Shown: positions 11,497-64,000 of the stretch, in pieces | Layout of the letters: each line of letters starts with the position of its first letter | Numbering within the stretch: position 1 is the stretch's first letter | Position numbers and translations under genes: made by a program | DNA from: a virus | Taxonomy: Duplodnaviria; Heunggongvirae; Uroviricota; Caudoviricetes | Direction: 5' to 3' (one strand) | Length of the DNA stretch: 64,000 bases | Virus record (IMG/VR): IMGVR_UViG_3300017992_000017 | Span: 33,418-97,417 of that record | Notes under the pieces: generated by a model | Database searches by the model: none | Seen by the model: the letters and a program-made list of their open reading frames with translations, nothing else | What the model was told of the DNA's origin: nothing

Positions 11497-11837
11497 AGTT
11501 TCTTTACTGCAAAGCCTGCTACGACATCTTCCGGTTGTGGGAGGAAGAAAGAACCTGCAAGTGTGGCAAGACCAAGGGACGATACCTTGATCTCTTGGCC
11601 GCTGAATACGTAGGGGATTTCGCCGTTCCGCTTGGTGTGGACAACTTCAGCTTCGTACGAGCGGTCAGGAGACAACCGGAGAAAGGTCGCGGCGAGCAGT
11701 TTGAGGCGTTCGTCATACCAGAGCGATGTCCGACGTTTAAGAGAAAAGGTACTCCGGGAGAGGGTTGGGACGGTGGTGTAAAGGGTAGCACACCGGCTGT
11801 AACTGGAGGTGCGGGTTCAATTCCCGTCCGTCCGTGA
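11493..11837 (+). CDS. hypothetical protein with N-terminal CxxC..CxC zinc-ribbon-like motif
   Basis: YCKACYDIF..CKCGKTKG; GTG start overlapping upstream stop. Confidence 0.35.
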   Translation: MKFLYCKACYDIFRLWEEERTCKCGKTKGRYLDLLAAEYVGDFAVPLGVDNFSFVRAVRRQPEKGRGEQFEAFVIPERCPTFKRKGTPGEGWDGGVKGSTPAVTGGAGSIPVRP

Positions 11838-25143: not shown

Positions 25144-25145
25144 TC

Positions 25146-25892: not shown

Positions 25893-26728
25893 GGGTTGTC
25901 TTCTTCTGGGGAACGTCTCCGTTGTCGTGGATGAGGTACGCCACGATCGCCAGCTTCCGGAAACTCAATCTGGACTGGGAGATCGAGCTGTATCTCTACC
26001 ACCACCAGCACGTCAAGAAGTACTGGACCGACTCCCCGGTGCAGGATTTTTCCGAGTACCGAGGAGCCGACTACTTTCCTTTGCTCACGGACCTTGGTGT
26101 TCGGGTCATTCCGTGGGAGTTGCCGGAGGAGCTGCAGGACAAGAAGCACGTCATCGGTCCTTCCCACGCCAGTAACTTCTTCAAGTGGAGCTGGCTGTCC
26201 GAGAACGTGGGTGTCTACTGCGACCTGGACATCCTCTGGACGTCCCCGCTTACGGACTGGCTTGACTGGGTGGCCACGTACGATGCTGCTCTTGCTTACA
26301 CGCCGGAGTACTTCTCGATCGGCCTTCTCTGGTCGGGACAGCAGCCGAACCCCGTCTACAAGGATATCCTGGCCGAGAGTTACCGCACCTTCACGCACAC
26401 CAAGTACCAGAGTGCCGGGGTCGTGGCACTCTATCGGTTACTGCAGAAGTTCGACCCAGCGTACCGTGAGCACCCGTGGGATAAGGATCTGCTCGCGAGG
26501 TACGACAACGCATACCTCTTCGACATGGACTGGGTCTATCCTTGGCGATTCAACCAGATGGAGGAGGTTTTCAACAAGAAGCACGAGGTCATCCCACCGA
26601 TGTGCAAGGGGATCCACTGGTACGCCGGGTCTCCAATCGCACAGAAGTACAACAACCTGATCACCGAGGACACGTTGGATCAGTACGACAATACGTTCAC
26701 CCATTTCGCGAGACGGGTCCTTGGTTGA
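25889..26728 (+). CDS. GT32-like (DXD, Gly_transf_sug-type) glycosyltransferase, paralog A
   Basis: FFWGTSPLSWMRY...FFKWSWLSENVGVYCDLDILW (DxD); paralogous to next ORF. Confidence 0.6.
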   Translation: MRVVFFWGTSPLSWMRYATIASFRKLNLDWEIELYLYHHQHVKKYWTDSPVQDFSEYRGADYFPLLTDLGVRVIPWELPEELQDKKHVIGPSHASNFFKWSWLSENVGVYCDLDILWTSPLTDWLDWVATYDAALAYTPEYFSIGLLWSGQQPNPVYKDILAESYRTFTHTKYQSAGVVALYRLLQKFDPAYREHPWDKDLLARYDNAYLFDMDWVYPWRFNQMEEVFNKKHEVIPPMCKGIHWYAGSPIAQKYNNLITEDTLDQYDNTFTHFARRVLG

Positions 26729-27536
26729 TCCTAAGAAACATATCGTCTTCTTCTGGTCCGGTCGTTCGCTGTCTTGGCTGCGATACCTGACGATCTACTC
26801 GTTTCGTGTCCTGAACCCGGAGTGGAAGATCTCCCTGTACCTGTGTCATACGAGTCTGGTGACGACTTGGCTCGATCATAACCGTCTCGACTTCAGTGAG
26901 TATGAAGGTGAGGACTATCTTCCCAGGCTCCAGTTTCTAGGGGTCGATGTCCAGCAGTGGGAGTTGCCTCCGGAGATCTGTAGTGCCACACCTCCCCACG
27001 CGTGCGATCTATTCGAGTGGCAGTGGCTGTCGGAGAACGTCGGGTACTACGCCGACATGGACATCCTGTGGGTCCGACCGATGAAGGTCCCGGACTCTGA
27101 TGCAGCGATTGTGTACGGCAAGCAATTCAGTATCGGCTTGGTGTGGTCGGGTGTGGCTCCGAATCCTATGTTCCGGGACATCTACCAGGAGAGCCTCCGT
27201 ACGTACACACCCGCCGTCTACCAGAGTGCCGGGGTCGTTCCCATCTACCAGCTCTTAGGACATTCCGGTCCCGAGGTTGACCTGTCCATACCCTGGTTCG
27301 AGCGATTACGAGAGAAGTATCCCACGGTCTCCAAGCTGCCGTTCCCCATGATTCATCCGTGGGATCATGAGCAGCTGGAAGCCATGTACGACGAGCTACA
27401 TACCGAGGTACCAACAGACTGTGTCGGAATTCATTGGTACGGTGCTGCTCCAAGGTCCCAGACGTTCAACCAGGAATACGGACCGAGGACGCAGCAGGAT
27501 AATACGCTAAGTCATTTTGCGAGACGGGTGGCATGA
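26721..27536 (+). CDS. GT32-like glycosyltransferase, paralog B (tandem duplicate)
   Basis: FFWSGRSLSWLRY...LFEWQWLSENVGYYADMDILW; colinear with paralog A, both end ..FTHFARRV. Confidence 0.6.
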   Translation: MVDPKKHIVFFWSGRSLSWLRYLTIYSFRVLNPEWKISLYLCHTSLVTTWLDHNRLDFSEYEGEDYLPRLQFLGVDVQQWELPPEICSATPPHACDLFEWQWLSENVGYYADMDILWVRPMKVPDSDAAIVYGKQFSIGLVWSGVAPNPMFRDIYQESLRTYTPAVYQSAGVVPIYQLLGHSGPEVDLSIPWFERLREKYPTVSKLPFPMIHPWDHEQLEAMYDELHTEVPTDCVGIHWYGAAPRSQTFNQEYGPRTQQDNTLSHFARRVA

Positions 27537-28303
27537 AACCCCTGGTGTCCGTGGTGGTGGCGACACGCAACAAGGACAAGATCCTGGCCAAGGTGCTGGC
27601 TAGTATCTACCGTCAGTCGTGTGCCTATCCCTTGGAGGTCGTGGTCGTTGATGACGGATCCACGGACAACACCCGGGAGACCTGCCTCGCGTACCCGGAC
27701 TTGCGATACATCAGGTTGGAGGGTGGGGAGTACCGAAACTCCTGCTTTGCTCGAAACTGTGGGTACTGGGCAGCGAACGGCATGGCGTTGGTACTGCAGT
27801 CGGATGATGTGGTGCATGTCTCCGAGCGTGCCGTCGAGAAGCTGGTCGATCGGTTGGGACCTGGCGAGTTTACGATTGCCACGGTCTACAACTACGACCC
27901 CGAGACCAACGCACCGGTCCTGATGTACACGGGGACGGGATGGAAGCGACCGTTCTTCTTCCTGGGAGCGATACGGACCGAGGACATCTATGCAGTCGGT
28001 GGGAATGAGGAGGAGCTATTGGATGTGGGGGTTGGGTTCGATGATACGTGGTTGGCCGACTGTCTCACGCTAGGACAAGGACTAACCCCGGTATTTATGC
28101 ACACCGTTCTTGGATATCACCAGAATCACCGTCCCCTGATCCCCGGCATCATGAGGGAGAAACACGCCGACGCGAAACTCTGGTACGAGGCAAAGGTGCG
28201 TACGGGAAGGTTCGTGACCTCTACCGGCGCGTGGACAGAACGAATGGATCCTGACGAATGGGTACGGCATTATCACGTGTGTCAAGATCTATCGAGGTAC
28301 TAA
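27533..28303 (+). CDS. family-2 glycosyltransferase
   Basis: VSVVVATRNKDKILAKVLASIYRQSCAYPLEVVVVDDGSTDNT. Confidence 0.75.
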   Translation: MKPLVSVVVATRNKDKILAKVLASIYRQSCAYPLEVVVVDDGSTDNTRETCLAYPDLRYIRLEGGEYRNSCFARNCGYWAANGMALVLQSDDVVHVSERAVEKLVDRLGPGEFTIATVYNYDPETNAPVLMYTGTGWKRPFFFLGAIRTEDIYAVGGNEEELLDVGVGFDDTWLADCLTLGQGLTPVFMHTVLGYHQNHRPLIPGIMREKHADAKLWYEAKVRTGRFVTSTGAWTERMDPDEWVRHYHVCQDLSRY

Positions 28304-28403
28304 TGTCCGAAGACGTCTACTACCTGACTCCGAAAGCCATCATGGTCGGGGTGCTCAGTGAATATATCCCGCATGAAGAACTTGTAAACGCAGAGGACGA
28401 GGA

Positions 28404-29279
28404 ATGAGCACCACGATCGTAGCTGAGATCGGGATCAATCACAACGGCTGTCTCGCATTCGCCAAAGAGATGATCGACGCAGCGTATGAGGCTGGTGCCG
28501 ACGTGGTGAAATTCCAGAAGCGTACCCTGCCTGCCGCCGTTCCCATCCACCAGCGACACGCACTCAAAGAGACGCCTTGGGGACAGATGACGTACCTCGA
28601 CTACCGAAACAAGCTGGAGTTCGGGTTCGAGGAGTACTGCACCCTCGATCGGTGGTGTGCCAGGTACCCGATCTCCTGGACTGCGTCGGTGTGGGATGCG
28701 GAGGCTGCCAAGTTCATCGCTCAGTTTGACGTGCCGTACCTCAAGATCCCCTCAGCTGCCATTACGGACGCTCGACTCCTAGATGTCGTACGAGCCACGG
28801 GTAAGCCGGTCGTGATGAGCACCGGCATGTCCACGCTGGAGGAGGTAGACGCTGCGATCAACGTGCTCATGGGTAGCCGGTACTGTGACGGAGACTCCTG
28901 CCGTCGTACGCGTCAGCTACCACCGGCTCAGCTCACGCTCCTGCATTGTGTGAGCACCTATCCGACAGCCATCCCAGACATCAACCTCCGGGTCATGGAC
29001 ACGCTACGAGCTCACACGGGACTCCCAGTAGGCTATTCAGGACACGAGGTAGGGATGGCTGTGAGTATTGCCGCTGTTGCTCGTGGTGCCTGCATGATCG
29101 AGAGACACTTCACCACGTCGCAGACCATGTGGGGTACGGATCAGCGAGCATCTATGGAGCCGGGGGATTTTGCTGCACTGGTCAACGGTATCCGATCGGT
29201 GGAGAGAGCACTCGGTGATGGGGTGAAGATTGTCTGCACCCGAGAACTTCCTATTCGACAGAAGCTACGGGGTGTGTGA
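28404..29279 (+). CDS. neuB: NeuB-family nonulosonic acid (sialic-acid-like) synthase, catalytic domain only (no SAF domain)
   Basis: IVAEIGINHNGCLAFAKEMIDAAYEAGADVVKFQ, VVMSTGMSTLEEV, LLHCVSTYP, GYSGHEVG, IERHFT, end LGDGVK colinear with NeuB/PseI; ORF stops where SAF domain would begin. Confidence 0.85.
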   Translation: MSTTIVAEIGINHNGCLAFAKEMIDAAYEAGADVVKFQKRTLPAAVPIHQRHALKETPWGQMTYLDYRNKLEFGFEEYCTLDRWCARYPISWTASVWDAEAAKFIAQFDVPYLKIPSAAITDARLLDVVRATGKPVVMSTGMSTLEEVDAAINVLMGSRYCDGDSCRRTRQLPPAQLTLLHCVSTYPTAIPDINLRVMDTLRAHTGLPVGYSGHEVGMAVSIAAVARGACMIERHFTTSQTMWGTDQRASMEPGDFAALVNGIRSVERALGDGVKIVCTRELPIRQKLRGV

Positions 29280-29566
29280 TGACTACCGTTATGTCCAATA
29301 CGCTGTTCGACATCGTCTCCGAGATCCACGAGAGGCTACAGCAACAGATCGACGAGGGGGTTGTCAGATGGGAAGTGCTCGATACCGGAGGAGCAGCACC
29401 AGTACCGTGTGGGGTCGTCTTTCGGTACGAGTTTGTGTGGAACAATCACAAATACATATGGAAACATGCTTTCTCAGCCATCGAGCTCCTGTGTTGTCCG
29501 GATCCTATCTGGGTGGCTGAGTGGTTGGCCGATAGCTGGTTGCATGATGCTAAGGCTGTGAAATGA
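29276..29566 (+). CDS. hypothetical protein
   Basis: 96-aa ORF with start overlapping neuB stop. Confidence 0.35.
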   Translation: MMTTVMSNTLFDIVSEIHERLQQQIDEGVVRWEVLDTGGAAPVPCGVVFRYEFVWNNHKYIWKHAFSAIELLCCPDPIWVAEWLADSWLHDAKAVK

Positions 29567-30423
29567 AGATTGTCCACTACAAGAAGACCCCCCTGGCTTA
29601 CGCTCCGGACTGGTTGTCGATGGCAATCAACAAGTACTCGGAGCATGAGTCTTCGGTCGTCACGTATCCGAAGCAGCTCCCCAAGCCAGCCAAGGATACG
29701 GTCGTCCATTTTCACAACCGGTTCGTCCCCTACGCCGGTCCCTGTCTGATCCAATACCATTCGGAGCCAGACGAACCGAACCTGATGCATCCGAAAGACC
29801 ACCCCACCGCTCCAGAACGTCGGTTGGTGGTGGCTCATTATCACCCCACGCTCCCCGAATACAAGGACATGCACCCGGTCCGTAACGTGGTGGACTTCAG
29901 ACGTCCTCAGTTTGCATACACCCCGGTTCGGAAGTTCAAGGTCGGTTACTCTCCCTCAGTCACGCGTCGGATCAGCAGGTGGTACGACAAGGGATATGAG
30001 AAGACAGTACAGATCCTCCAGCGTGTTGCCAAAGAAGTCCCGGAGATGGAGGTCGACATTATTGCCGGGGTTTGTCTGGATGAGTGTCTCCGGCGTAAAC
30101 GGGACTGCTCCGTGCTGATCGATGAGTGCGTGACCGGGAGCTATCATCGGAGTGGACTGGAAGGACTGGCGTTGGGGAAGGTGACGATAGCCGGTATGGA
30201 TGCTGCCGTGGTTGATGTGTTTCAGAACGTGTCGGGATCTGTTCTGATTCCGTTTACGATCTGTGGCATCGACTACCTGTGCAACAAGCTGATCCGTCTG
30301 TCCAAGGATATTGATGCGTTGAGAGAACGAGGACTGCACAACCGGCAGTGGTTTGAGAATTTCTGGGCGCCTGAACAGATCGTGGCCGAGTACGTGGAGC
30401 ACTACAAGGAGGTGCTGGCATGA
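29563..30423 (+). CDS. putative GT1/GT4-fold glycosyltransferase
   Basis: C-terminal SYHRSGLEGLALGKVTIAGMDAAV resembles GT4 E.FG...lEAmA.G.PVI block. Confidence 0.45.
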   Translation: MKIVHYKKTPLAYAPDWLSMAINKYSEHESSVVTYPKQLPKPAKDTVVHFHNRFVPYAGPCLIQYHSEPDEPNLMHPKDHPTAPERRLVVAHYHPTLPEYKDMHPVRNVVDFRRPQFAYTPVRKFKVGYSPSVTRRISRWYDKGYEKTVQILQRVAKEVPEMEVDIIAGVCLDECLRRKRDCSVLIDECVTGSYHRSGLEGLALGKVTIAGMDAAVVDVFQNVSGSVLIPFTICGIDYLCNKLIRLSKDIDALRERGLHNRQWFENFWAPEQIVAEYVEHYKEVLA

Positions 30424-31055: not shown

Positions 31056-31060
31056 CCGTG

Positions 31061-31133
31061 GCCACCGTAGCTCAATTGGCAGAGCAGCGGATTTGTAATT
31101 CGCCGGTTGTGGGTTCAAGTCCCTCCGGTGGCT
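31061..31133 (+). tRNA. tRNA-Thr (anticodon UGU), no encoded CCA
   Basis: acceptor GCCACCG/CGGTGGC perfect 7 bp, D-arm GCTC-AATTGGCA-GAGC, anticodon stem GCGGA/TTCGC with loop TTTGTAA, T-arm GTGGG-TTCAAGT-CCCTC. Confidence 0.6.
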
Positions 31134-31401
31134 TTGACAAGGAGAAGAACGTGAACAACCCCCCAGCGTTTCCCCGTCCGATTGGTGCGGCTATTACGAA
31201 GGATGATGGATATGGTACACGACACCGTACCGTTTCCCCAGCCGCGCCTGGCATGACCCTGCGTGACTACTTCGCTGCACACGCACTGTCTGGCATTATC
31301 GGTAACGGAGCGCTTCATTTCACACATGGACACACACAGAAAACAGTCCGGTGTGCTTACGAACTCGCCGACGAGATGCTGAGACAAAGGGAGGTTAGCG
31401 A

Positions 31402-53947: not shown

Positions 53948-54835
53948 CTAGCTGCAAGGCCACGGGGCGATATGCAACAAACCGCCGCAATAGGGGCAAT
54001 GCCCGTTGCGGTCATCGTCTACCCAAACCACGCCCGCGCACGGTTCGGGCCGTTCGGGCAAGTCGATCGGCAAGCTACGCTGCGCCGGGTCGGGCCGTTC
54101 GGGGTAGTCGGGCCGTTCATCGGTTGCGGGGTAGTCTTCCAGCTCCGTGTATCCCTGGCCGCAGCACCCGTCGGGATACCAATTGCAACTATCGTCGGTG
54201 TCCCAATGCTTGCCGCAATCGTCGCAATAGATCGACGCATGGGCATTGTCGAAGATGCTCAGCCCCTCATAATCGGTCACATCAAACGCGACGGGATCGG
54301 TGTAGCCCCCACGAACATCGCAACCTCCGTGGATCTGCAGCAAGACGTGTGCCCCGTCATCGTCGCACCAATAGACGTACTGAATCGTCTGGCTGAGCAG
54401 GTCTTCGCCGTTGTACGTGTTCACGGTCACAGGGTCTCCCTCCCCGTAGATGCCCCCAGCGCCGTCCAGGGACTCCACAAATGCTTCTGCAGAGGGTAAC
54501 CACAGCTCCACGCCCTCGTGCTCAGCGAACTCCCTGTAGCGATCGTCGAGTTCTTCGTTGTACTCAAGTCGATCCTTAAGGAAATGGTATACGTTCACGG
54601 TGGCCAGTATGTCGGCCTCTTCCCCCCGGAGCCAGAACTCGAGCTGCCCCTCTGGCTGCGCCTCGAGGTCCACTCCCTGGTTTCGCTCCCAGTGGCGACC
54701 GTAGCCGTACCGGAAGCTGCCGTCGGGTTGCTGCTCGCCCCCGGAGTCCAGAATGCTCCGACCCGTGTTCTCTTGGAGCATTTCGGCCAGTTTGTCGGCG
54801 GTTGTATCGGTTGTGTCGGTTTGCGTTGCGGTCAT
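53948..54835 (-). CDS. hypothetical acidic, Cys-containing protein
   Basis: GGGAGA SD 8 nt before ATG 54835; CDDCGKHWDTDDSC...CPYCGG. Confidence 0.45.
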   Translation of the reverse strand: MTATQTDTTDTTADKLAEMLQENTGRSILDSGGEQQPDGSFRYGYGRHWERNQGVDLEAQPEGQLEFWLRGEEADILATVNVYHFLKDRLEYNEELDDRYREFAEHEGVELWLPSAEAFVESLDGAGGIYGEGDPVTVNTYNGEDLLSQTIQYVYWCDDDGAHVLLQIHGGCDVRGGYTDPVAFDVTDYEGLSIFDNAHASIYCDDCGKHWDTDDSCNWYPDGCCGQGYTELEDYPATDERPDYPERPDPAQRSLPIDLPERPEPCAGVVWVDDDRNGHCPYCGGLLHIAPWPCS

Positions 54836-55734
54836 GTTCGTTTTCTCCCGTTGTCGGTTGTGGTTGGTTGCGTTTAGCGTTGTCCAGGTTTCCATAATTA
54901 GACTCCTTTGCGTAGAATAGATTGGTGGGGAAACTATGTTTGATTATCGGTGGTATAGTTTAGCTGTCAATAGCACAGGGGAGCAAATAGTCTATTTTGT
55001 GGTGAATTCTCTAAAATCAGTAAGATATAGGGGGAAGGTTTGCGGGGGTTGCCCAGTCTGCGCAGATTACCATTGTGGGGGGTGTCATACAATATATTGT
55101 GCGGGAAGGTATCGTCGCCGGTGGAATCGTCCGGATATTGCGCGGCCGGTGAGTGCGCTAGCACGCTAGTACAGTTGCCCCGGGATAGCTTCCAGTCTGG
55201 CCCGATAAAGCCTACCCCCAGGGTGAATTTTAGCCTCCGCTAATGCAGATTTTCGGAACCACGGCCGATGCGGACCGAAAGCTAGGCGCTCTGGGGATTT
55301 AGGGACGGGAGGGGAATCCGGGGAAACCCCCTCCCCGGTGGTGCCTTAGTCCCTCGCTGGCGCTCGGTCCACCACAGTAGTCCATATTTCCGAGGTCCAT
55401 CTCCACACCTACCACGAGCTCCCATAACCCCCTGTAACCCCACACCTCTCCTGGTAACTTCTGGTCAACCCCCCAGAAAGAGTATATAGGATGTCTACAT
55501 AGTGCTCCATCTCCTTGCACAGTACCAAACCTCCTGGGACTGTGCAGACGTCTTTTCCCTACTCCTCCTCCCATGTCTCTAGAAATATCCCACCAAAATT
55601 CTGGGAAGGTCATATTTCCGGGGTCGAGCGAGAAAAATCCGGAAAAGTATAGTTTCTGGGGTTGCCTGCCGAAACTATACCGGTAGAATGGTATCAGTGG
55701 GGGTTACTAGATTGATCTGCTGGGAGACTCTGAC

Positions 55735-55995
55735 ATGGCGAAAGACCCGGTACTGAAGCTTGCGAGTGAGGTGGAAGACCCGGTTACCACCCTGTACTTG
55801 GAGAGAATGCCAAACGGAAACATCGCGCTCAAGGCACGCGCTCCAAGGGGTAATGTCTGGCGCCTGTTCGAGATCCACACGCATACCGGCGACATCGTGG
55901 GGTATGACGACATTCCCGACGACATTGGACTACCGGCGGATGAGGACGGCCAGTTGGTGATCTCGAATGTTTCTGTACCGGAGAACTCCCTATGA
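55735..55995 (+). CDS. hypothetical protein
   Basis: 86 aa; first gene of + strand block after long noncoding region. Confidence 0.4.
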   Translation: MAKDPVLKLASEVEDPVTTLYLERMPNGNIALKARAPRGNVWRLFEIHTHTGDIVGYDDIPDDIGLPADEDGQLVISNVSVPENSL

Positions 55996-56123
55996 CCCTC
56001 ACTACCAAACAACCGGGTGACCTGGTCGTTATCGAGCTGGAAGAGGACGAGGAGGATATCAACTTGCTCGCCACGAAGAACGGTCACAGCTGGGTACTCG
56101 CTCTGTTTATTACGCTGGCCTAG
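55992..56123 (+). CDS. hypothetical small acidic protein (43 aa)
   Basis: ATG overlapping upstream stop; my translation MTLTTKQPGDLVVIELEEDEEDINLLATKNGHSWVLALFITLA. Confidence 0.25.
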   Translation: MTLTTKQPGDLVVIELEEDEEDINLLATKNGHSWVLALFITLA

Positions 56124-56174
56124 ACCGATCTCTTTTCCGATAAACCTGCCTCTTGGTAACCCTGGAGTATTTCT

Positions 56175-56747
56175 ATGACTAATACCGTGCCTGTTAGTAC
56201 TTCACACCTTGGTTGGCGACCGCAAGCGAGGATCGAACTGCCTGTTGGAACAATCTTCGTTTCGACGGAAGAGACAACAACCGAGAAGGAACTGAGGGTT
56301 CTTGCTCGTCGGATCAAGGTGTGCATGGAAGCTCTGGCTGATGTTTCTCTAGATCTGTTTGAGGAGGGGTTCTTCGACGACGCGTTTCTGAAGATGGCTC
56401 CGGCTGCCAAGGACGAACTCGCGAAACGATCTGCCTTCGATGAGGTGCCGGAACAGCTGCGAAAGCACTACTCCCGTTACGACGATCTCTCCTGTAACGG
56501 CTGTGATGGCGTTCGTGGGGATCATGAAGAGGACTGTCCCGTCGCCGATCTGGAGGAGCTCTACGCAAAGACCCAGGCAGACGTCGTGCATATCTCCGAG
56601 TGTGTCGTCAAGAACTGTCAGGCTGAGAGCGTGCCTGGTGGTAAGTACGACACCCCCCAGACATGTCGCTGTGGCCGGGAGTGCTGGGAGACGGGACGAG
56701 ACGGAACAACGCGGTGTGTCTACTGTGCGTCCCTGAGGAAAGAGTAA
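56175..56747 (+). CDS. hypothetical Cys-rich protein
   Basis: 190 aa. Confidence 0.4.
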   Translation: MTNTVPVSTSHLGWRPQARIELPVGTIFVSTEETTTEKELRVLARRIKVCMEALADVSLDLFEEGFFDDAFLKMAPAAKDELAKRSAFDEVPEQLRKHYSRYDDLSCNGCDGVRGDHEEDCPVADLEELYAKTQADVVHISECVVKNCQAESVPGGKYDTPQTCRCGRECWETGRDGTTRCVYCASLRKE

Positions 56748-56749
56748 CC

Positions 56750-56923
56750 ATGGCCGAACCTGAAAATCCGCTCGGCCTGACTCCGGAAGAGATTGAGGCT
56801 TTGCTGCCGCCACCGATCGATCTGCAAAACGAAGAGCGAGTTGGTGTGCGTTACGACTACTGTCCTGAGTGCGGCCGAGATCCCAAAGATCCCGGCTCCA
56901 AAGGTTGCTGTTACTGTGGATAA
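56750..56923 (+). CDS. hypothetical zinc-ribbon protein ending ..CCYCG
   Basis: CPECG...GCCYCG; ATG 3 nt after upstream stop. Confidence 0.3.
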   Translation: MAEPENPLGLTPEEIEALLPPPIDLQNEERVGVRYDYCPECGRDPKDPGSKGCCYCG

Positions 56924-56932
56924 GGAGATGCA

Positions 56933-57277
56933 ATGAAAGACGTGACAATCAAGATCTGGGTAACCAAGTCCTGGAAGTTCCGTGCGCGGGTTATGCCACG
57001 AGATGGACTGGCGTATGAGGTGACTGTCGGTGGGAAACAATGGCGACAAGGCAAAGGATGTCCGTATCAAAGAGAGATCCTGGACAGATGCCAATGTCTG
57101 AAAACCACGCTCGCAGAGATCTTGCTGGAGCTTGAGATTGCTGACGAACGGCGAAGGGAAGACGACACGATCTCCGATGGCTTTGGGAATGCCTGGGATG
57201 CTATTTGTCTTAATTGTGGCCGGAGGTCTATGGAGGTCGTCCGTCCCGGCAAAGTTCAATGTGCGTACTGTGGATAA
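56933..57277 (+). CDS. hypothetical zinc-ribbon protein ending ..CAYCG
   Basis: CLNCG...CAYCG, same C-terminal signature as previous ORF. Confidence 0.4.
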   Translation: MKDVTIKIWVTKSWKFRARVMPRDGLAYEVTVGGKQWRQGKGCPYQREILDRCQCLKTTLAEILLELEIADERRREDDTISDGFGNAWDAICLNCGRRSMEVVRPGKVQCAYCG

Positions 57278-57399
57278 GGAGAACTCATGTTTGATTCAGA
57301 CTGTCCCGCTACCGTATTTGCGATCCTGTCTAGCACCTTTGCCGTTATCTCCCCAGTGTGTGCCGTTCTCTCGCTAGCTCTGTCATGAAAGGAGAACCC

Positions 57400-57738
57400 A
57401 TGGTCACCTATGACAGCGTAGAAGAAGCGGAATTTGTCAGCTGGCTAGAAGAGGAGCTCCTGCATCCTACGCGATGGAAGAGAGCTCGGTTCCAAAAGCA
57501 GAACTACGGCACCGAGTCTGTCAGCTACTTCTACACGCTGGTACACCCGATAGCCAAGATCAAGATCCATCGTTGGCTTGCGGGTGTAGAAGTCTATGAC
57601 GGACGCAAGACCTTCGCGGTTGAGTCAGAACAAGCTCGGGATGCCTTGGACAAGCTCGAGAAGGACCACAAGGCACACGAACGCCAACGTCTTATTTCCA
57701 GGATCCTCGAACGTATCTTCGTCGGGAGAACCCCATGA
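57400..57738 (+). CDS. hypothetical protein
   Basis: AAAGGAGAA SD before ATG 57400. Confidence 0.4.
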   Translation: MVTYDSVEEAEFVSWLEEELLHPTRWKRARFQKQNYGTESVSYFYTLVHPIAKIKIHRWLAGVEVYDGRKTFAVESEQARDALDKLEKDHKAHERQRLISRILERIFVGRTP

Positions 57739-58175
57739 CCCAACAACTACGACTCGGACTACAGCTGGTCGATCGGCAAGCTCGGTATGACAATTCGCCG
57801 GGTGCTTGGACGACGGCTGCAGACCTGATCGAGCTGTCCTTGCGAGAAGCCGAACGATGGACAAGACGGTGCGACGATGCCAAAAGGATCCCGGACATGC
57901 TGTGGGAAGCATGCCAGGACCTTCGCGCACGTGCCAAGGACTGTCTGGCTGAGTTCTCGCAACGAAGCGTGTCACCGCTCAAACTGGCTCAACGGCGCAT
58001 CCATCTTTTAGGACACGACCATTACCAGCTGAACGAGGTCGGGATCCTGGCAGCCGAGGTACTAAGACTCACCACAGAGCTTGCAGAAGCCAACCATACC
58101 ACGGAACTGTACGAGTCCGAAGTGGCCGGTCTGCAACGAGAGCTCGACCTCGAATACGGAAGGGACGAGAACTGA
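57735..58175 (+). CDS. hypothetical protein
   Basis: 146 aa. Confidence 0.4.
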   Translation: MTQQLRLGLQLVDRQARYDNSPGAWTTAADLIELSLREAERWTRRCDDAKRIPDMLWEACQDLRARAKDCLAEFSQRSVSPLKLAQRRIHLLGHDHYQLNEVGILAAEVLRLTTELAEANHTTELYESEVAGLQRELDLEYGRDEN

Positions 58176-58178
58176 CTC

Positions 58179-58364
58179 ATGCACTTCAATATCTTCTTCA
58201 CCCTCAAAGGACCTGGCGGGAAGATCGATGCGCCGAACAACAGCAACCCGGTTGAATGCAAGGACCTATACACCCTACTACACGATCTGGCCGAGCAACT
58301 ACCAAATAACTGGCTGGTAGAAACGATCGGCGTACGCATCGAAAAGACGGGGGGGACATGGTAG
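58179..58364 (+). CDS. hypothetical protein
   Basis: 61 aa. Confidence 0.3.
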   Translation: MHFNIFFTLKGPGGKIDAPNNSNPVECKDLYTLLHDLAEQLPNNWLVETIGVRIEKTGGTW

Positions 58365-58915
58365 ACACACAAGCACAGGGAGTCGCACCCGCAATCTGCC
58401 TCATCAACCCGAAGACGGAAATCAACGTCGGGATGGTCGTACGTCTGGCATCCTGTTACGGAATCTCGCAGGTGTGGTGGACCGGGCACAGAGTCAACTT
58501 GGATCGCAGCGGAAAGCGTCGACTCCCACGAGAAGAGAGACTCCGGGGGTATCAGGACGTGACCATGATCCAACATGATCGTCCGTTCGATCACTTTCCT
58601 GGTGCAGTACCGGTGGCTGTTGAGGTACGCGAGAACGCCGAGAACCTCCTTGCCTTCGAGCACCCGGAGAACGCCTTGTACGTGTTTGGTCCGGAAGACG
58701 GGGGACTACGAGCGGTGGACGTGCGTCATTGCCATCGCTTCCTGATCATCCCCACGGACCACTGCCTCAACCTCGCAACTGCTGTGGCTACCGTGCTGTG
58801 GGATCGGACCGTGAAGGCGCATCTGAACGGCGACGTATCCCGTGTTGGAAGGTCCCCGGCAACGTGCGAGAACCGAGGATTTGTAGACAGTCCGATCGTA
58901 GAGGAGGTACCGTGA
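58358..58915 (+). CDS. SpoU/TrmH-class (SPOUT) RNA 2'-O-methyltransferase
   Basis: ICLINPKTEINVGMVVRLASCYGIS, YVFGPEDGGL, IPTDHCLNLATAVATVLWD (SpoU motifs 1-3). Confidence 0.7.
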   Translation: MVDTQAQGVAPAICLINPKTEINVGMVVRLASCYGISQVWWTGHRVNLDRSGKRRLPREERLRGYQDVTMIQHDRPFDHFPGAVPVAVEVRENAENLLAFEHPENALYVFGPEDGGLRAVDVRHCHRFLIIPTDHCLNLATAVATVLWDRTVKAHLNGDVSRVGRSPATCENRGFVDSPIVEEVP

Positions 58916-59100
58916 AAAGACTACTCGACTACCTGGCTATCGTGATTGTTGCTGCGATCTATCTGGCAGTGGCGACGTTGGCATTTCTCGCTTTCACAGG
59001 GTTGATTATTCACGAGCCGGAGACAGCTGCTGGATGCACGGCGATTACTGCTGTGGTCGTACTGTTTATCTGGTCAATGCACAGACTGGAGAACAGGTGA
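58912..59100 (+). CDS. small membrane protein
   Basis: GTG overlapping upstream stop; two hydrophobic helices. Confidence 0.3.
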   Translation: MKRLLDYLAIVIVAAIYLAVATLAFLAFTGLIIHEPETAAGCTAITAVVVLFIWSMHRLENR

Positions 59101-59420
59101 TGCAAGAACGTACTGTAGATGTCGATTGTGTCCGGTTCAGTTGCTTCTCCGGGGCGCCAAAGCTCGTGCAGGACTACCTCATCCTGCGAGAGAACGAGAC
59201 CCTGGACGCGTGGGTTCTCGAGTTCAAGCGTGGGGTGACCGGATACGAGTCTCTCATCGTGACCGGACCAGGCGCCGCAGATCTGGAGAGACTGTGCGAG
59301 GTCGGATGGTGGGCCTGTGCTGGTACGACGGGTTGCTGGGATAGTCTCTTTGTACATCCACTCCAGCTGAAACGGGTCTTTGAGGATCTAGGACTTCTCG
59401 AAAAGGAGACGACGCAGTGA
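59100..59420 (+). CDS. hypothetical protein
   Basis: 107 aa. Confidence 0.35.
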   Translation: MQERTVDVDCVRFSCFSGAPKLVQDYLILRENETLDAWVLEFKRGVTGYESLIVTGPGAADLERLCEVGWWACAGTTGCWDSLFVHPLQLKRVFEDLGLLEKETTQ

Positions 59421-60175
59421 AATTCGATGACCTAGACGCCAAGATGCGGGTCTTCGAGACTGTGGCCGATACCTGCGTTCTGCCTGAGCTCTACATGGTT
59501 GCTCGACTGGATGGACGTAGCTTCACCCGGCTGACGAAAGAGACCCACCCATTTGACACGCCGTTTGACAGCCGGTTTCGGGACATGATGGTCGCAACCA
59601 CGGAATCGCTGATGACCTGCGGCTTCCGGGTGATCTACGGGTATACCGAGAGCGACGAAATCTCCTTGCTGTTTGCACGTAACGAGAACACGTTTGGCCG
59701 GAAACTGCGTAAGTACAACTCAGTACTGGCAGGAGAAGCGAGTGCCAAATTCTCATTACTGTGTGGGAGCGTCGGGGCATTTGACTGTCGTGTCTCCCAG
59801 CTGCCAACCCCAGATCTGGTGGTTGACTACTTTCGCTGGCGTAGTGCGGACGCCACCAGGAACGCCTTGAACTCCTGGTGTTACTGGATGCTAAGAAGAA
59901 AGACCGGCAAGAGTAAACGCCAAGCCACGTCACAGCTCCTTGGACTCTCGATAAGCGAAAAGAACGAGCTGCTCTTCCAGTACGAGATCAACTTCAACGA
60001 TCTCCCTGCGTGGCAAAAACGTGGGGTCGGCGTGTACTGGGAACACTACGACAAGCCGTCCGTGAACCCGGTTACAGGCGAGTGTGTTGTGGCCGGTCGT
60101 CGTCGCATTCGGAGAGAGTATGAGCTGCCAATGAAGGACGAGTACAGCGAGTTCATTCGTGCTATTCTCGGTTAG
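59417..60175 (+). CDS. Thg1-like protein (tRNA-His guanylyltransferase family, 3'-5' nucleotidyltransferase)
   Basis: MVARLDGRSFTRLT (cf. VVVRLDGRNFHRF), YGYTESDEISLLF (AYGQSDEYSFVF), DYFRWRSADATRNALNSWCYW ([21 protein letters not shown]), EKNELLFQYEINFNDLPAWQKRG ([24 protein letters not shown]). Confidence 0.8.
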   Translation: MKFDDLDAKMRVFETVADTCVLPELYMVARLDGRSFTRLTKETHPFDTPFDSRFRDMMVATTESLMTCGFRVIYGYTESDEISLLFARNENTFGRKLRKYNSVLAGEASAKFSLLCGSVGAFDCRVSQLPTPDLVVDYFRWRSADATRNALNSWCYWMLRRKTGKSKRQATSQLLGLSISEKNELLFQYEINFNDLPAWQKRGVGVYWEHYDKPSVNPVTGECVVAGRRRIRREYELPMKDEYSEFIRAILG

Positions 60176-60183
60176 GAGAAACC

Positions 60184-60441
60184 ATGGCTGACATCGTAGA
60201 CCTTTGCCGTACTGTAGCTGACGGCGCCTCCTCTGCCTGGGGTGACGCGTCGGAGCAGTTGAAACCGATCCTCACGGCTGCCAGCAATACCTTGTTGGAT
60301 GCTGCCAAGGAGATTGAATGTCTCCGATCTGCATACCACGGGTCCTGCTACGCGTGTGAGATCCGAAAGACCTGTGACTGCGCGTGGGACATCTACAACC
60401 TGAACACGGTCGCCGGGATTGACTGCCTGGCGAGTAAGTAA
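60184..60441 (+). CDS. hypothetical protein
   Basis: 85 aa. Confidence 0.35.
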   Translation: MADIVDLCRTVADGASSAWGDASEQLKPILTAASNTLLDAAKEIECLRSAYHGSCYACEIRKTCDCAWDIYNLNTVAGIDCLASK

Positions 60442-60629
60442 TGCCTAGACTTCATGTAAGCTGCAACAAGTTCGCGTGCCGGGTAGTCGTCGATGAAGCT
60501 ACCCAGACCATCACCGACGCAGAACCGGCCATGCGCAGATTCGTTGGACAGCCGATCCGGAACCTCTACGCCTGGTTCGCGAAGTTTGGCAACCTCCGGA
60601 TTGTTGATCTGGATGAGTATAGTCTGTGA
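60441..60629 (+). CDS. hypothetical protein
   Basis: 62 aa. Confidence 0.3.
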   Translation: MPRLHVSCNKFACRVVVDEATQTITDAEPAMRRFVGQPIRNLYAWFAKFGNLRIVDLDEYSL

Positions 60630-60645
60630 AACCTAGTTTTGGTTA

Positions 60646-60674
60646 TTGCCAGACACCTCGTTTTCGGGTATAAT
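60646..60674 (+). promoter_or_regulatory. canonical sigma70-type promoter upstream of integrase
   Basis: TTGCCA (60646-60651) - 17 nt - TATAAT (60669-60674); AAGGAGAA SD at 60692-60699; ATG 60706. Confidence 0.6.
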
Positions 60675-60705
60675 ATGGGTAGTTCAAGATCCAAGGAGAA
60701 CCCCC

Positions 60706-61650
60706 ATGTACGACCTGATCCCAGCAGCTTCCAATACCCTCGTCCAGCACGACTACAACCGGCTTGTGGCGCAGTGGCTGTCCGGACGCAAGGATACCAC
60801 GCTCAACACGTACAAGTCGGCTCTCCGGGACTTTGCGGCCTGGTTGGACGTCCGATCCATGGCCGAAGTCGCTGAAAGTCTCCTCACGCTGGATGCTGGC
60901 CAGGCGAACGCGAAGATCCTGGACTACAAGAACGCTCTGATCGCTAGAGAGCTGGCACCTGGGACGGTCAACCTGCGTCTTGCTGCGATCCGGTCCTTGG
61001 TGTCTCTGGCTGCCATGCTCGGGATTGTGTCTTGGACGGTCCGGATCAAGGGACTGAAACAACGAGTCTACCGGGACACGCGAGGTCCTGGTGCTGACGG
61101 ATACCGATCGATCGTCTCCAACCTTGACACGACCACGAAACCCGGCAAACGGGACGCGGCGATCGTACGGCTCCTCTACGTGCTGGGTCTCCGTCGTGGT
61201 GAGGTCGTCTCCCTGGATCTGGAGGATGTGGACTTCTCAGCTGGACGCGTCGAGATCTTGGGGAAGGGACGTCTGCAGAAGGAGTGGGTGACCATCCCCC
61301 CGGAGACGCTCGAGACGCTCCGTGAGTGGGTGGATGCTCGGGGGTGGCACTGCGGTCCTCTCTTCGTCTCCTTGGCCAGAGGGAGCTACGGGAAGCGGCT
61401 CACGGGTCGTAGCGTGGCCAGTGTGGTACAGAAGGCTGGTGTCGCGGCTGAGCTCGATCGACCGGTGCGTCCCCATGGTCTCCGGCATGCTGCTATCACC
61501 GAGCTCCGGGACCAGGGCGCCAGCGATCGGGACGTGATCCGGTTCTCTCGGCACCGCTCTCCCGACGTCCTGCAGTACTATGATGACAACCGAGACGATA
61601 TCGCTGGGAGACTCGCTACCAAATTGGAGATACTCGATGAAAGCCGCTGA
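60706..61650 (+). CDS. int: tyrosine-type site-specific recombinase / integrase (XerC/D-like)
   Basis: LGLRRGEVVSLDLEDV (R-box), HGLRHAAITEL (H-x-x-R), DVLQYYDDN (catalytic Y region); N-terminal SAM-like core-binding domain. Confidence 0.9.
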   Translation: MYDLIPAASNTLVQHDYNRLVAQWLSGRKDTTLNTYKSALRDFAAWLDVRSMAEVAESLLTLDAGQANAKILDYKNALIARELAPGTVNLRLAAIRSLVSLAAMLGIVSWTVRIKGLKQRVYRDTRGPGADGYRSIVSNLDTTTKPGKRDAAIVRLLYVLGLRRGEVVSLDLEDVDFSAGRVEILGKGRLQKEWVTIPPETLETLREWVDARGWHCGPLFVSLARGSYGKRLTGRSVASVVQKAGVAAELDRPVRPHGLRHAAITELRDQGASDRDVIRFSRHRSPDVLQYYDDNRDDIAGRLATKLEILDESR

Positions 61651-61906
61651 ACTGAGAGAACGACTACGGAAGGTCAAGGGTGCCGAGGAGAAGGTCGACG
61701 CTCTGCTGGCCAAGTCCTTCTCCCGGGACGACAAAGACAGGATCCTTACCCGGATTGGAAAGCTGGCTCGGGAATGGTTGGAGTGTATCCGGGAAGAGGG
61801 TCGCGTCTCGCACCACGTGACCGACGCGTTCGAGGCAGTGGTCCTGATGGCTTTCTACGGTGATGACATCTATCGTGTCACCGAGCCGTTGCGGGATGAT
61901 TGGTAG
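61637..61906 (+). CDS. hypothetical protein
   Basis: ATG overlapping int 3' end. Confidence 0.35.
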   Translation: MKAAELRERLRKVKGAEEKVDALLAKSFSRDDKDRILTRIGKLAREWLECIREEGRVSHHVTDAFEAVVLMAFYGDDIYRVTEPLRDDW

Positions 61907-62001
61907 ACCGCTATCACACTTCAGGGGGGTTGTTTCTCCGTCCACTGTCGGTAGAATTATGGTAGGCTGTCGGTCTACTGTTCATTTACCGGGGGTGCAT
62001 C

Positions 62002-62370
62002 ATGAAACGACTCATCTGTCTGCTGGCAATTCTTCTCGTGTGCATGGGTGCTCGTTGGCGATCCTACTACCACACCAGGGTCGTCTCTGATCTCGGGTAT
62101 GCAGAGAAGAAGGTCCCACTCTACGCCGAGAAGACCGAGATCAACATCGTCTACCCGGGTGAGAGCCGGTTGACGGTGGAACTGCGGGGTCCGAACGGTG
62201 AGCTGGCCAAGAAGCTGGTCGATCGCAAGGAGGGTCCGGTCAAGGTCTCCTTCAAGGACGACGACGAGCTCGAACTGCTGGTCAAGGGTTATTGGCGGGT
62301 CCGTGTCCACGCCGACGATGACAAGAAGTGGGCAATCCAGTTCAAGCAGACGATCATCCGGAAACGCTAG
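62002..62370 (+). CDS. putative secreted/lipoprotein
   Basis: MKRLICLLAILLVCMGARW signal peptide with lipobox-like LLVC. Confidence 0.45.
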   Translation: MKRLICLLAILLVCMGARWRSYYHTRVVSDLGYAEKKVPLYAEKTEINIVYPGESRLTVELRGPNGELAKKLVDRKEGPVKVSFKDDDELELLVKGYWRVRVHADDDKKWAIQFKQTIIRKR

Positions 62371-62645
62371 CCGACCGAGGAGACCATCATGTCTCCGGCT
62401 GCCAGAACACGATCGAGCTGCTGCGATACGAGTCTGACCCGACTGCTGATATCGTCTTCTATCGCAGTCCACTCTTCGTACATGCTTCTTTCACCTCGCC
62501 AGTGTTTTGGGCCGACACTGTTGGAGTGTTGGCGTCTTTGCAGATCCATGGCGTAATCAAAGACGTCCACAAAGATTTCGTCCACAAGATCTGCGAGCAC
62601 CTCTGTTTCCTGATCAAACTTCACGGCCTCGGTAGTGGTATCCAT
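62367..62645 (-). CDS. hypothetical acidic protein
   Basis: internal Met of track ORF 62367..62978; upstream part of that ORF is Pro/Arg/Cys-rich and not protein-like. Confidence 0.3.
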   Translation of the reverse strand: MDTTTEAVKFDQETEVLADLVDEIFVDVFDYAMDLQRRQHSNSVGPKHWRGERSMYEEWTAIEDDISSRVRLVSQQLDRVLAAGDMMVSSVG

Positions 62646-62830
62646 GAGGGGACTCCGGGGAGGGATGGGATTGGTATGCCAGGATACTACAGTGTATGCA
62701 GGATGCTGTGATGAGTCAATCCTCGTTTCATGATCGTTTAACAGCCAGTAAACTGTGCTGCCGTTGTTTTTGCCTGTACAGCGTGACAAAAATACTTGAC
62801 GATGGTCTCGCTGTATCGTAAGGTTACACC

Positions 62831-63139
62831 ATGAGCAGCAAAGACAATGGCACAGAATCACTGAAGCCTCCCCTTCCCCCGGCGAAATTTCTTGCGATTG
62901 TCCAGGAGGTGGAGCAGGAGGCACGAGAGCTGCGGGAGACCTACGAGCTGCTGCGCAGTCTCGAGGGTGCGGTCCCAAATGTCGCGAACCAAAGAATGCT
63001 CCGGCCGTCTCTCAACCGGCTACACAAGTTCGCGGTCGCAGCTGCCGAGGCCGTCAGGGAGCTCCGAATCGCCGATACCGAACGTCGTCTGGATGCTGAG
63101 GTATCGGGAAATCGTCAAGGAAATGCTCTCCCTAAATGA
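62831..63139 (+). CDS. hypothetical protein
   Basis: 102 aa; TTGACG...TATCGT upstream. Confidence 0.35.
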   Translation: MSSKDNGTESLKPPLPPAKFLAIVQEVEQEARELRETYELLRSLEGAVPNVANQRMLRPSLNRLHKFAVAAAEAVRELRIADTERRLDAEVSGNRQGNALPK

Positions 63140-63258
63140 TTTTACAACAAGGGTCTCGCTGATCCTGCCACTGTGGACACCACTGCTCCGCGTACGGACC
63201 GGGGATTAGAGCACATCGCCAACTGTCTGCGTAAATTGCGTTGAACACCTCGGCGTAG

Positions 63259-63714
63259 TCAGTAAGCTTGAGCGAGTGAACAGGTGACAAACAGAAAGCG
63301 GCGTTGGTTTCCACGTACAATCCAGACTTCGGTGCTGTAGGGACACGAAGGTGGCAGCGGTACCCGTTGCAAACTGTCTACGCCCAACACGGCAACTATA
63401 TCACCAGTTCGACCAACGATCGCGGTATGTGTAACTTGCATATTCGCAGCACCAAGTCCGAGAGCTGGCACCGTAACGGCCAGTACGATGTTCTCTTTTC
63501 CGAAATGCGCCAGGCGATGTGACTGGCAAACAGCATCTCGGGTACAAGGCACGGCAAGGTTAGGCGTACGGACCCCGGCAAAGCTCGTTGAGATGTCCGT
63601 GGTATGGGGGCCAAGAGAGATGTCGTGCAGACGGAAGTTACGGTCGGTGATTCCCACAATGTCGCTGGACGTTTCAAGCAGCCTCTCTGCCTCCTCTACC
63701 GTGTAGGTTCGCAC
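63259..63714 (-). CDS. hypothetical protein
   Basis: 151 aa. Confidence 0.3.
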   Translation of the reverse strand: MRTYTVEEAERLLETSSDIVGITDRNFRLHDISLGPHTTDISTSFAGVRTPNLAVPCTRDAVCQSHRLAHFGKENIVLAVTVPALGLGAANMQVTHTAIVGRTGDIVAVLGVDSLQRVPLPPSCPYSTEVWIVRGNQRRFLFVTCSLAQAY

Positions 63715-63880
63715 AGATTGCCTCTTGGTGGTCTGGGAGGGTCGTGGGAGGAACAGTTTACCCCTATCTCGTCGCCGGAGTCAAGTAAATCCGAGTTGGC
63801 AGTAAATTTGGCAGTAAATGCCTGCATTCCCCGGCCTTTTACTGCTGTTTCCTACCACTACAACACACCCGAAAACAACG

Positions 63881-63915
63881 AAAAACCCCGTAAAACAGGG
63901 GTTTTCTTTGTTTTG
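63881..63915 (+). terminator. rho-independent terminator candidate
   Basis: AAAACCCC-gtaaaaca-GGGGTTTT followed by CTTTGTTTTGTTG. Confidence 0.55.
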
Positions 63916-63957
63916 TTGAAGTACCAGCGGTAGTTCTGCACGGCAGTTTTTTATCAC

Positions 63958-63986
63958 TTGACAAATAAAGGACTTACGGCTATAGG
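63958..63986 (+). promoter_or_regulatory. sigma70-like promoter candidate at window end
   Basis: TTGACA (63958-63963) - 17 nt - TATAGG (63981-63986). Confidence 0.45.
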
Positions 63987-64000
63987 AGAAGCGTCGGGGC

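Follow-up and report, generated by a model that had tools for sequence, protein, structure and literature searches.

Thg1-like proteins (TLPs) of bacteria and archaea repair the 5ʹ ends of transfer RNAs (tRNAs) in vitro (PMC3061083, PMC6471195), and bacterial operons in which a TLP gene is joined by a kinase gene and, in some cases, an RNA ligase gene were described by Anantharaman, Iyer and Aravind in 2010 (PMC2904730). The same work discussed the TLPs of phage 201phi2-1 and mimivirus, and a survey of jumbo phages in 2021 found TLPs to be sporadically present and credited them with the 5ʹ-nucleotide restoration of tRNA (PMC7824862). In Pnkp/Hen1 repair, protection of the RNA follows the logic that a 2ʹ-O-methyl group blocks nucleases that use that hydroxyl as the nucleophile (PMC4411300). 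Herein, we analyzed a stretch of 64,000 nucleotides (the window; positions 33,418 to 97,417 of the IMG/VR virus record IMGVR_UViG_3300017992_000017) from a phage-like element of about 106 kb (105.7 kb source contig), in which a SpoU-class 2ʹ-O-methyltransferase and a TLP are encoded 500 bp apart. Our preferred reading, which we hold to be reasonably probable, is that two separately acquired, intact RNA-modifying enzymes lie in a packed accessory run upstream of an integrase, and that both plausibly serve to maintain a usable tRNA pool, be it in an infected cell or in a lysogen.

The locus and its two enzymes

The genes of the locus and the two tRNA features of the window have the following positions.

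58358..58915, + strand: SpoU/TrmH-class (SPOUT) RNA 2ʹ-O-ribose methyltransferase, 185 amino acids (aa), stand-alone (PF00588, family alignment, AlphaFold2 (AF2)/Foldseek)
58912..59100, + strand: small open reading frame (ORF), 62 aa, GTG start, hydrophobic, probably a membrane protein (gene call in the independent assemblies L005-L007)
59100..59420, + strand: ORF of 106 aa, its stop codon overlapping the start of the TLP gene (gene call in L005)
59417..60175, + strand: TLP, predicted 3ʹ-5ʹ nucleotidyltransferase, 252 aa, GTG start (PF04446 and PF14413)
60646..61650, + strand: tyrosine recombinase (integrase) directly downstream of the TLP gene (Pfam Phage_integrase E 4e-22; PHROG integrase)
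31061..31133, + strand: tRNA-Thr(UGU) (ARAGORN, 31060-31134; Rfam, 65.6 bits)
11767..11835, + strand: aberrant tRNA-like element (ARAGORN 'tRNA-???'; Rfam tRNA, 41.4 bits)

The SpoU and TLP ORFs belong to a tightly packed same-strand run that extends from about 56.2 kb to the integrase, and only the two small ORFs (58912-59100 and 59100-59420) intervene between them. The GTG start of the TLP gene overlaps the stop of the 106-aa ORF, and between SpoU and TLP no terminator-like or promoter-like site was found above shuffle expectation. Considering this operon-like packing, the overlapping stops and starts, and the lack of a terminator-like site above background, the two genes are probably co-transcribed. 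A strong promoter-like site (11/12 positions) was located at 60646-60674, before the probable start of the integrase, for which an internal start at about 60706 is likely (a 314-aa gene call in L005); the integrase marks the accessory-gene region of the element. An independent European Nucleotide Archive (ENA) assembly, L005, was 99.97% identical to the window and colinear with it over 54153-64000, spanning SpoU, TLP and integrase, indicating that the juxtaposition of the two genes is not a chimera or an assembly artefact. The 62-aa ORF had no Pfam or PADLOC match and no tblastn homologue in 240 SpoU or TLP loci, and the 106-aa ORF had no Pfam, PHROG or PADLOC match. When the 56-62 kb region of the window was compared with GenBank phages by blastn, no match was obtained.

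The preliminary description of this DNA, made from the sequence alone, had named the ORF at 59417-60175 a Thg1-like protein, and this identification was borne out by the profile search, the aligned carboxylates and the fold. The Pfam profile Thg1 (PF04446) matched with E 5e-30 and 104.6 bits (cutoff 29.2), Thg1C (PF14413) with E 4e-17 and 63.1 bits (cutoff 26.3), and the PHROG family phrog_4717, 'tRNA-His guanylyltransferase', with E 3e-39. With E 3e-27, the TLP of M. acetivorans (5axk) was the best sequence match in the Protein Data Bank (PDB); for human Thg1, E was 7e-26. In phmmer alignments to 3otb and 5axk, residues D32, D80 and E81 aligned with the human carboxylates D29, D76 and E77; they are supplied by the motifs ARLDGRSF and ESDEIS and are invariant in both TLP family alignments. 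The AF2 model had a mean predicted local distance difference test (pLDDT) value of 83, and its best Foldseek match was 5axk_B (E 3e-17, template modeling (TM) score 0.81); the top 32 matches were all Thg1/TLP chains, and no other class appeared at E<=1e-10. Compared with 119 close homologues, the protein keeps 120 of the 123 columns conserved at >=95%. The three divergent columns are the GTG start, L116C and E144A, the last two being non-catalytic, and human Thg1 also has A at the E144 position. HINNLYN, the anticodon-recognition motif of human Thg1 (PMC6471195), is replaced by ATRNALN, which assigns the protein to the TLP type and not to bona fide eukaryotic Thg1. Judged by sequence and predicted structure, the ORF encodes a typical template-dependent Thg1-like enzyme with its carboxylates intact.

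The assignment of the gene at 58358 to the SpoU class was likewise confirmed. The profile SpoU_methylase (PF00588) matched above its cutoff (E 9e-14; 52.2 bits, cutoff 29.7) over profile positions 4-141 of 142, and the motif residues N23 and R29 (motif 1), E113 (motif 2) and N138 (motif 3) are kept and are invariant in the family. The AF2 model (pLDDT 84.6) has the expected fold, its top Foldseek matches being the TARBP1 methyltransferase domain, TrmH, AviRb, TrmJ and TrmL, with TM scores of about 0.6-0.67 and 17-26% identity. There were 122 PDB matches at E<=1e-3, and all 50 of those listed were SpoU-class methyltransferases with the SPOUT alpha/beta fold. NCBIfam models gave sub-threshold matches only (TIGR00050 TrmJ/YjtD, 37.5 bits vs 167; NF041077, 22 bits vs 350), and the equivalog or subfamily cutoffs of TrmJ, TrmL and TrmH were not reached. 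About 3,200 homologues were found, of which the best were 54-67% identical and about 190-200 aa long, and two features mark the family, the insert LPREER[ML][KR]GY, which is highly conserved, and TPGEFExRG at the C-terminus. A family profile matched 160 clusters (50% identity) at E<=1e-30, and from the PDB it retrieved only TrmJ (4e-5), TrmL (1e-4) and TrmH (9e-3), all of them tRNA enzymes (range 4e-5 to 1e-2). These results point to a genuine SpoU-class methyltransferase that falls outside any characterised subfamily.

Origins and genomic surroundings of the two genes

The closest homologues of the TLP were 68-80% identical, and the named ones, some of them on chromosomal contigs of 0.5-7.8 Mb, belonged to Planctomycetaceae (Symmachiella dynata, Gimesia); identity to the chromosomal Planctomycetaceae TLPs was 72-80%. 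We inspected the context of five relatives, with 80%, 79%, 78%, 75% and 73% identity. In all five, a 146-aa AAA_33 P-loop kinase overlapped the TLP start, and where the contigs were longer, an RNA ligase (PF09414) and then a protein with HD and AAA_33 domains followed. The kinase was also present in 55 of 80 further metagenome TLP loci. Two of the five cassettes, on Planctomycetaceae contigs of 0.7 Mb and 7.6 Mb, stood beside Hen1, two RlaP nucleotidyltransferases and Pnkp. The blastn similarity between the window and these host loci, up to 76%, spanned 59418-60169 only, that is, the TLP ORF, and tblastn of the window gave no significant match to the host AAA_33 kinase, RNA ligase, HD-kinase, Hen1 or RlaP, or to a phage-type RNA ligase. 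As the nucleotide similarity ends at the ORF bounds and the cassette partners are missing, a single gene appears to have been captured from a planctomycete host. The GC content at third codon positions of the TLP gene, 0.67, is in line with that of phage genes. On the simplest reading of the sequences, the TLP was captured as a single ORF from a Planctomycetaceae cassette (P-loop kinase, TLP, RNA ligase, HD-kinase), followed by amelioration and purifying selection. A complete repair cassette in the window was also considered, and was dropped as no cassette protein was matched by tblastn. The 106-aa ORF stands where host loci have the kinase gene; its interpretation as a relic of that kinase was rejected on the same search, in which the host AAA_33 kinase matched nothing in the window. 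An exact-sequence look-up of the TLP returned no record.

Among the loci compared, the cassette of Planctomycetaceae chromosomes was seen at L002 1-8638, L335 1-8656 and L003 5571-8626, and in two cases it lies back to back with Hen1, two RlaP genes and Pnkp, which together make up a large composite RNA-repair island. At L001 3976-12709 (IMG/VR 3300003323_001438), a kinase-TLP pair whose TLP is 63% identical has a HipA toxin kinase on one side and a protein with a Colicin_D (tRNase) domain on the other; it adjoins a 1347-aa protein with a Zeta_toxin domain, so that this TLP lies within a toxin island.

For the SpoU family, 152 relatives were found in IMG/VR, mostly on contigs of 50-545 kb, while GenBank phages held only two copies, one in a 595-kb uncultured phage and a distant one in a mycobacteriophage. 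Bacterial copies gave 461 matches, in Pyrinomonadaceae, Gemmataceae/Fimbriiglobus, Actinomycetota and Alphaproteobacteria. The viral context was taken from the best 80 of the 152 IMG/VR loci (L013-L092; e.g., L016 9354-10498), 71 after dereplication; 80 viral TLP loci fetched likewise and 80 bacterial SpoU-family loci, drawn from the 461 matches, served as controls. In 41 of the 71 loci, a tRNA gene lay within 10 kb of the viral SpoU gene; the distance was less than 1 kb for 19 loci and less than 200 bp for 9, and 380 of the 387 tRNAs shared the strand of SpoU. In the controls, a tRNA was present in the flank of 18/80 viral TLP loci (Fisher p 5e-6 vs the viral SpoU loci) and of 11/80 bacterial SpoU loci (17 tRNAs in 1.05 Mb; p 4e-9 vs the viral SpoU loci). 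No tRNA species was enriched beside viral SpoU; tRNA-Arg was nearest in 5 of 22 cases, equal to its background frequency. The commonest conserved neighbour was an RNA ligase (PF09414; 11 loci), often directly upstream, and a histidine phosphatase (7 loci) and a metallophosphatase, NADAR and Nudix proteins (4 each) also recurred. The position of the family inside same-strand tRNA arrays and by RNA ligases is the strongest available evidence for an action on tRNA. The literature searched held no description of this family of about 190 aa, and nothing relevant on phage SpoU or tRNA 2ʹ-O-methyltransferases.

The window itself encodes a calcineurin-like metallophosphoesterase (39984-40568, - strand; phrog_547, E 3e-43), which resembles the SpoU-adjacent metallophosphatases (L016) at the superfamily level only.

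The preliminary description had presented the two genes as a tRNA-directed enzyme pair. Characterised relatives and genomic context indicate that both families are tRNA-directed, but a conserved pair was not found. SpoU was absent from all 80 close (metagenome) TLP loci, and TLP from all 80 bacterial SpoU loci. Within 10 kb, a TLP was present in 2/80 viral SpoU loci (L021 and L090), at a distance of 6-9 kb, and SpoU in 3/80 viral TLP loci, comprising the same two contigs and one weak match. The TLPs of the L021 and L090 contigs were only about 31% identical to that of the window; in L021, SpoU and TLP flank a tRNA array, and the L090 contig has RlaP in the vicinity as well. On another viral contig, which carries a 63%-identical SpoU, there was no TLP within 8 kb and no other ORF in common with this region. 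Loci L009-L011 and L253-L258 had been candidates for related phages, and were set aside when ORF-by-ORF comparison showed SpoU alone in common for the former and TLP alone for the latter. On the sequences compared, the SpoU-TLP adjacency is peculiar to this element and is neither a conserved module nor an obligate two-component system, the two genes having been acquired separately from different evolutionary sources; where they do meet elsewhere, the reason is that tRNA or RNA-repair islands are places in which both of them often end up.

The tRNA-Thr gene at 31061, on which the preliminary description had also drawn, was confirmed by ARAGORN and Rfam. The tRNA-Thr(UGU) is canonical, with a perfect 7-bp acceptor stem (G1-C72...G7-C66) and U73, and CCA is not encoded. 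As a perfect acceptor stem needs no 5ʹ repair or editing, this tRNA was rejected as an editing substrate of the TLP; it also lies 27 kb from the enzymes without an evident link to them, and thus lends no support to that interpretation. In the element at 11767, the anticodon loop (CUGUAA) counts 6 nt, the anticodon stem is shortened, and the first acceptor pair is a G1.G72 mismatch, flagged by Rfam as non-standard; folded for minimum free energy (z -1.3), the element does not form a cloverleaf. Either a pseudo-tRNA or a functional RNA of an unusual type may be encoded here. In mitochondrial 5ʹ-editing, TLPs correct defects such as a first-pair mismatch (PMC6471195), and by analogy the G1.G72 mismatch could make the element a TLP substrate, which is speculative.

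The origin of the TLP together with the Gemmataceae/Fimbriiglobus relatives of SpoU suggests that the host of the element is probably a planctomycete. Elsewhere in the window, a nonulosonic-acid/glycan biosynthesis cluster (15208-30423, + strand) is carried on this phage-like element, and also holds two GT2 glycosyltransferases, a sulfotransferase and a radical-SAM enzyme. Its further features, and two sigma factors within its bounds, are as follows.

15208-15954 and 18111-19091, + strand: two CMP-sugar cytidylyltransferases
17515-18126, + strand: GT29 sialyltransferase-like protein
22360-22884 and 22897-23457, + strand: two tandem sigma-70 factors of the extracytoplasmic function (ECF) type
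28404-29279, + strand: NeuB (E 1e-77)

From 34000 to 55000, on the - strand, extends a long block of ORFs with almost no Pfam or PHROG function, some of which match PHROGs without assigned function.

Proposed roles and alternative explanations

In the preferred reading, in which both enzymes help to keep tRNAs usable, the TLP would activate the 5ʹ phosphate of a 5ʹ-shortened tRNA with ATP (adenylylation of the 5ʹ-monophosphate end) and would then refill the acceptor stem in the 3ʹ-5ʹ direction by Watson-Crick-templated additions, with the 3ʹ strand as template. As the phage encodes no kinase or ligase, the TLP would have to use 5ʹ-phosphorylated ends or depend on host end-healing enzymes. From its family chemistry and context, SpoU would transfer the methyl group of S-adenosylmethionine (SAM) to a ribose 2ʹ-OH of tRNA; the nearest characterised relatives modify tRNA positions 18, 32 or 34. 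The modification could either complete tRNA maturation or shield a phosphodiester bond from 2ʹ-OH-dependent ribonucleases. A role of the two enzymes against host defences would be a plausible proposal.

Several points weigh against this reading. The label 'phage' rests on replication and DNA genes (DNA polymerase A, a sliding clamp, single-stranded DNA-binding protein (SSB), a UvsX-like recombinase, SbcCD and two DNA methyltransferases), on PHROG matches, several window ORFs matching phage-only PHROGs or PHROGs without assigned function, and on the integrase. The 64-kb window showed no clear virion structural gene, only one weak baseplate-like match at 42859-43902, within the - strand block. 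That the SpoU family acts on tRNA is plausible by guilt by association, and the SpoU gene of the window lies outside any tRNA array, 27 kb from the nearest tRNA. The TLP lacks its usual kinase partner and is perhaps less useful than in the host cassette. Two independent assemblies (L006, JGI 3300017990; L007, ERZ27256776) stop exactly at 59537, inside the TLP gene, and these shared contig ends may reflect population variants or an assembly-graph branch from k-mers common with host TLP genes. Further, the literature searched held no defence system that shortens tRNA 5ʹ ends, and we know of no defence that trims them.

A stronger coupling, in line with the counter-defence role suggested in the preliminary description, would be a 'repair and protect' system analogous to Pnkp/Hen1: when a tRNase of the host or of a competitor damages tRNAs, the TLP would rebuild them, and SpoU would 2ʹ-O-methylate the vulnerable site against recutting. 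Probable co-transcription at a distance of 500 bp is consistent with such a system, as are the two unrelated large viral contigs that hold SpoU and a different TLP lineage within 10 kb (L021/L321, flanking the tRNA array; L090/L276, also with RlaP), the presence of Hen1, a 2ʹ-O-methyltransferase acting in repair, next to the host TLP cassette, and the frequent abutment of phage SpoU genes on an RNA ligase. However, SpoU occurred in none of the 80 close TLP loci and the two viral sets gave only two and three cases, the genes being 6-9 kb apart; the 63%-identical SpoU stands on its contig with no TLP within 8 kb, and the two genes come from different evolutionary sources. TLPs work at the 5ʹ acceptor end and the nearest SpoU relatives at the D loop or anticodon loop, so that the chemistry is not obviously connected. 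None of the ten ORFs of the operon matched a PADLOC model, and no tRNase is known for the host. We judge such a coupled system to be unlikely. The enzymes could instead mature or tune the element's own tRNAs, the TLP editing the 5ʹ end of the 11767 element and SpoU modifying phage-encoded tRNAs. The mismatched first acceptor pair of that element fits this explanation, TLP-dependent 5ʹ-editing of mismatched tRNAs is established for Dictyostelium DdiTLP3 (PMC6471195), and the SpoU family is found within same-strand phage tRNA arrays. But the genuine tRNA-Thr needs no editing, the 11767 element, with its 6-nt anticodon loop and no cloverleaf fold, may be a pseudogene and lies 47 kb from the TLP gene, viral TLP loci are not especially near tRNA genes (18/80), and only one or two tRNAs are present in the window, all of which makes this explanation quite improbable.

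An equally slim chance is given to a role as lysogenic-conversion cargo, in which expression from the prophage would protect the tRNAs of the lysogen against competitor ribotoxins (colicin D/E5-like toxins, or toxins of contact-dependent inhibition (CDI)) or superinfecting phages. The location of the genes directly upstream of the integrase among small ORFs, the derivation of the TLP from a host RNA-repair cassette, and the L001 kinase-TLP pair between HipA and a Colicin_D-domain protein all agree with it. Yet the integrase is the only evidence for lysogeny, a host with its own TLP cassette would gain little, and the tRNA arrays that accompany the SpoU family in large phages are typical of lytic-cycle translation support. 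Least probable, and to our mind very improbable, is that SpoU is not tRNA-directed and has a different target, either ribosomal RNA (rRNA), which RlmB, Tsr and AviRb methylate, or some other RNA. Foldseek matched AviRb, RlmB, Nhr, Tsr and YsgA at similar scores, and the Pfam family PF00588 spans rRNA and tRNA enzymes. The matched rRNA enzymes, however, are chains of 236-267 aa, whose extra length is presumably an N-terminal RNA-binding domain, and the 185 aa of SpoU leave no room for an extra N-terminal domain. Further, the nearest sequence-profile matches are all tRNA enzymes (TrmJ, TrmL, TrmH), and the family is strongly embedded in tRNA arrays on the same strand.

Beyond the preferred reading of two enzymes that help to keep the tRNA pool usable, the SpoU family might be a phage 'tRNA immunisation' enzyme, which would methylate an anticodon-loop or D-loop ribose and thus block 2ʹ-OH-dependent anticodon nucleases; with the RNA ligases in tRNA islands, and with the captured TLP here, it would form a protect-and-repair toolkit. 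We regard this extension as tentative and unlikely. If true, it would give bacterial TLPs a first physiological role, in phage-host conflict; to our knowledge, neither a physiological substrate nor a trigger is known for those bacterial and archaeal TLPs that have been characterised, despite their well-defined in vitro activity. That a phage copied only the TLP from a host repair cassette and kept it under purifying selection would argue that the activity matters during infection, and the locus offers a compact system for testing the role of TLPs. Evasion of tRNA-targeting defences by phages is so far explained mainly by tRNAs that the phages encode and by repair with ligase and kinase; an enzymatic layer would be added to this picture if the SpoU family serves to protect tRNAs or to complete them. 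On present evidence, the locus by itself represents an ordinary accessory-gene pair.

Comparison with known systems

The preliminary description had thought a viral Thg1-like enzyme noteworthy in itself. This cannot be maintained, considering that TLPs are annotated in 152 GenBank phage records, that 497 IMG/VR stretches match, that PHROG 4717 represents them, and that the literature has treated them in 2010 and 2021. The phage TLPs (PHROG 4717; Pseudomonas phage 201phi2-1, Bacillus phage G, Bacillus BCP78-like phages and Cronobacter GAP32, among others) are viral copies of the same enzyme family. The TLP of the window, however, shows an identity of only about 31% to all 152 copies in GenBank phages and appears to stem from a separate, comparatively recent capture out of the planctomycete host lineage. 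With the bacterial and archaeal TLPs (M. acetivorans 5axk, B. thuringiensis 4kgk and the kinase-TLP operons), it shares the PF04446 and PF14413 architecture, the carboxylates, the lack of HINNLYN and, with a TM score of 0.81 to 5axk, the fold. It differs from them in two conserved columns (L116C and E144A), neither catalytic. In contrast to the bacterial kinase-TLP cassette, it is carried by a phage-like element and lacks the neighbours (polynucleotide kinase, RNA ligase and HD-kinase) seen around all of its closest relatives examined.

SpoU has the same SPOUT catalytic domain, motifs 1-3 and N/R/E/N residues as TrmL (Cm34/Um34), TrmJ (Cm32/Um32) and TrmH (Gm18), and like TrmL it is a minimal single-domain protein. 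Its identity to these enzymes is only 17-26%, its scores are far under the NCBIfam equivalog cutoffs, and the family-specific insert of about 20 residues (LPREERMKGY) and the TPGEFExRG tail set it apart from them.

The Pnkp/Hen1 and Pnkp1-Rnl-Hen1 systems (PMC4411300) follow the same logic, in which an RNA-end repair enzyme is combined with a 2ʹ-O-methyltransferase. Hen1 adjoins the TLP cassette in Symmachiella and a related contig, but the Pfam matches of host Hen1 are Hen1_L and Methyltransf_11/12/23/25/31, not SpoU_methylase. Hen1 is a Rossmann-fold methyltransferase that acts on the 3ʹ-terminal ribose of broken RNA. With no Hen1-like sequence, ligase or kinase in the window, the likeness is a functional analogy only. 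What is new, compared with these systems, is a separate lineage of TLP, by its sequence derived from planctomycetes and captured as a single ORF, and a neighbouring SpoU gene that belongs to a widespread phage tRNA-island family for which the literature searched held no description. Neither point changes the kind of system involved.

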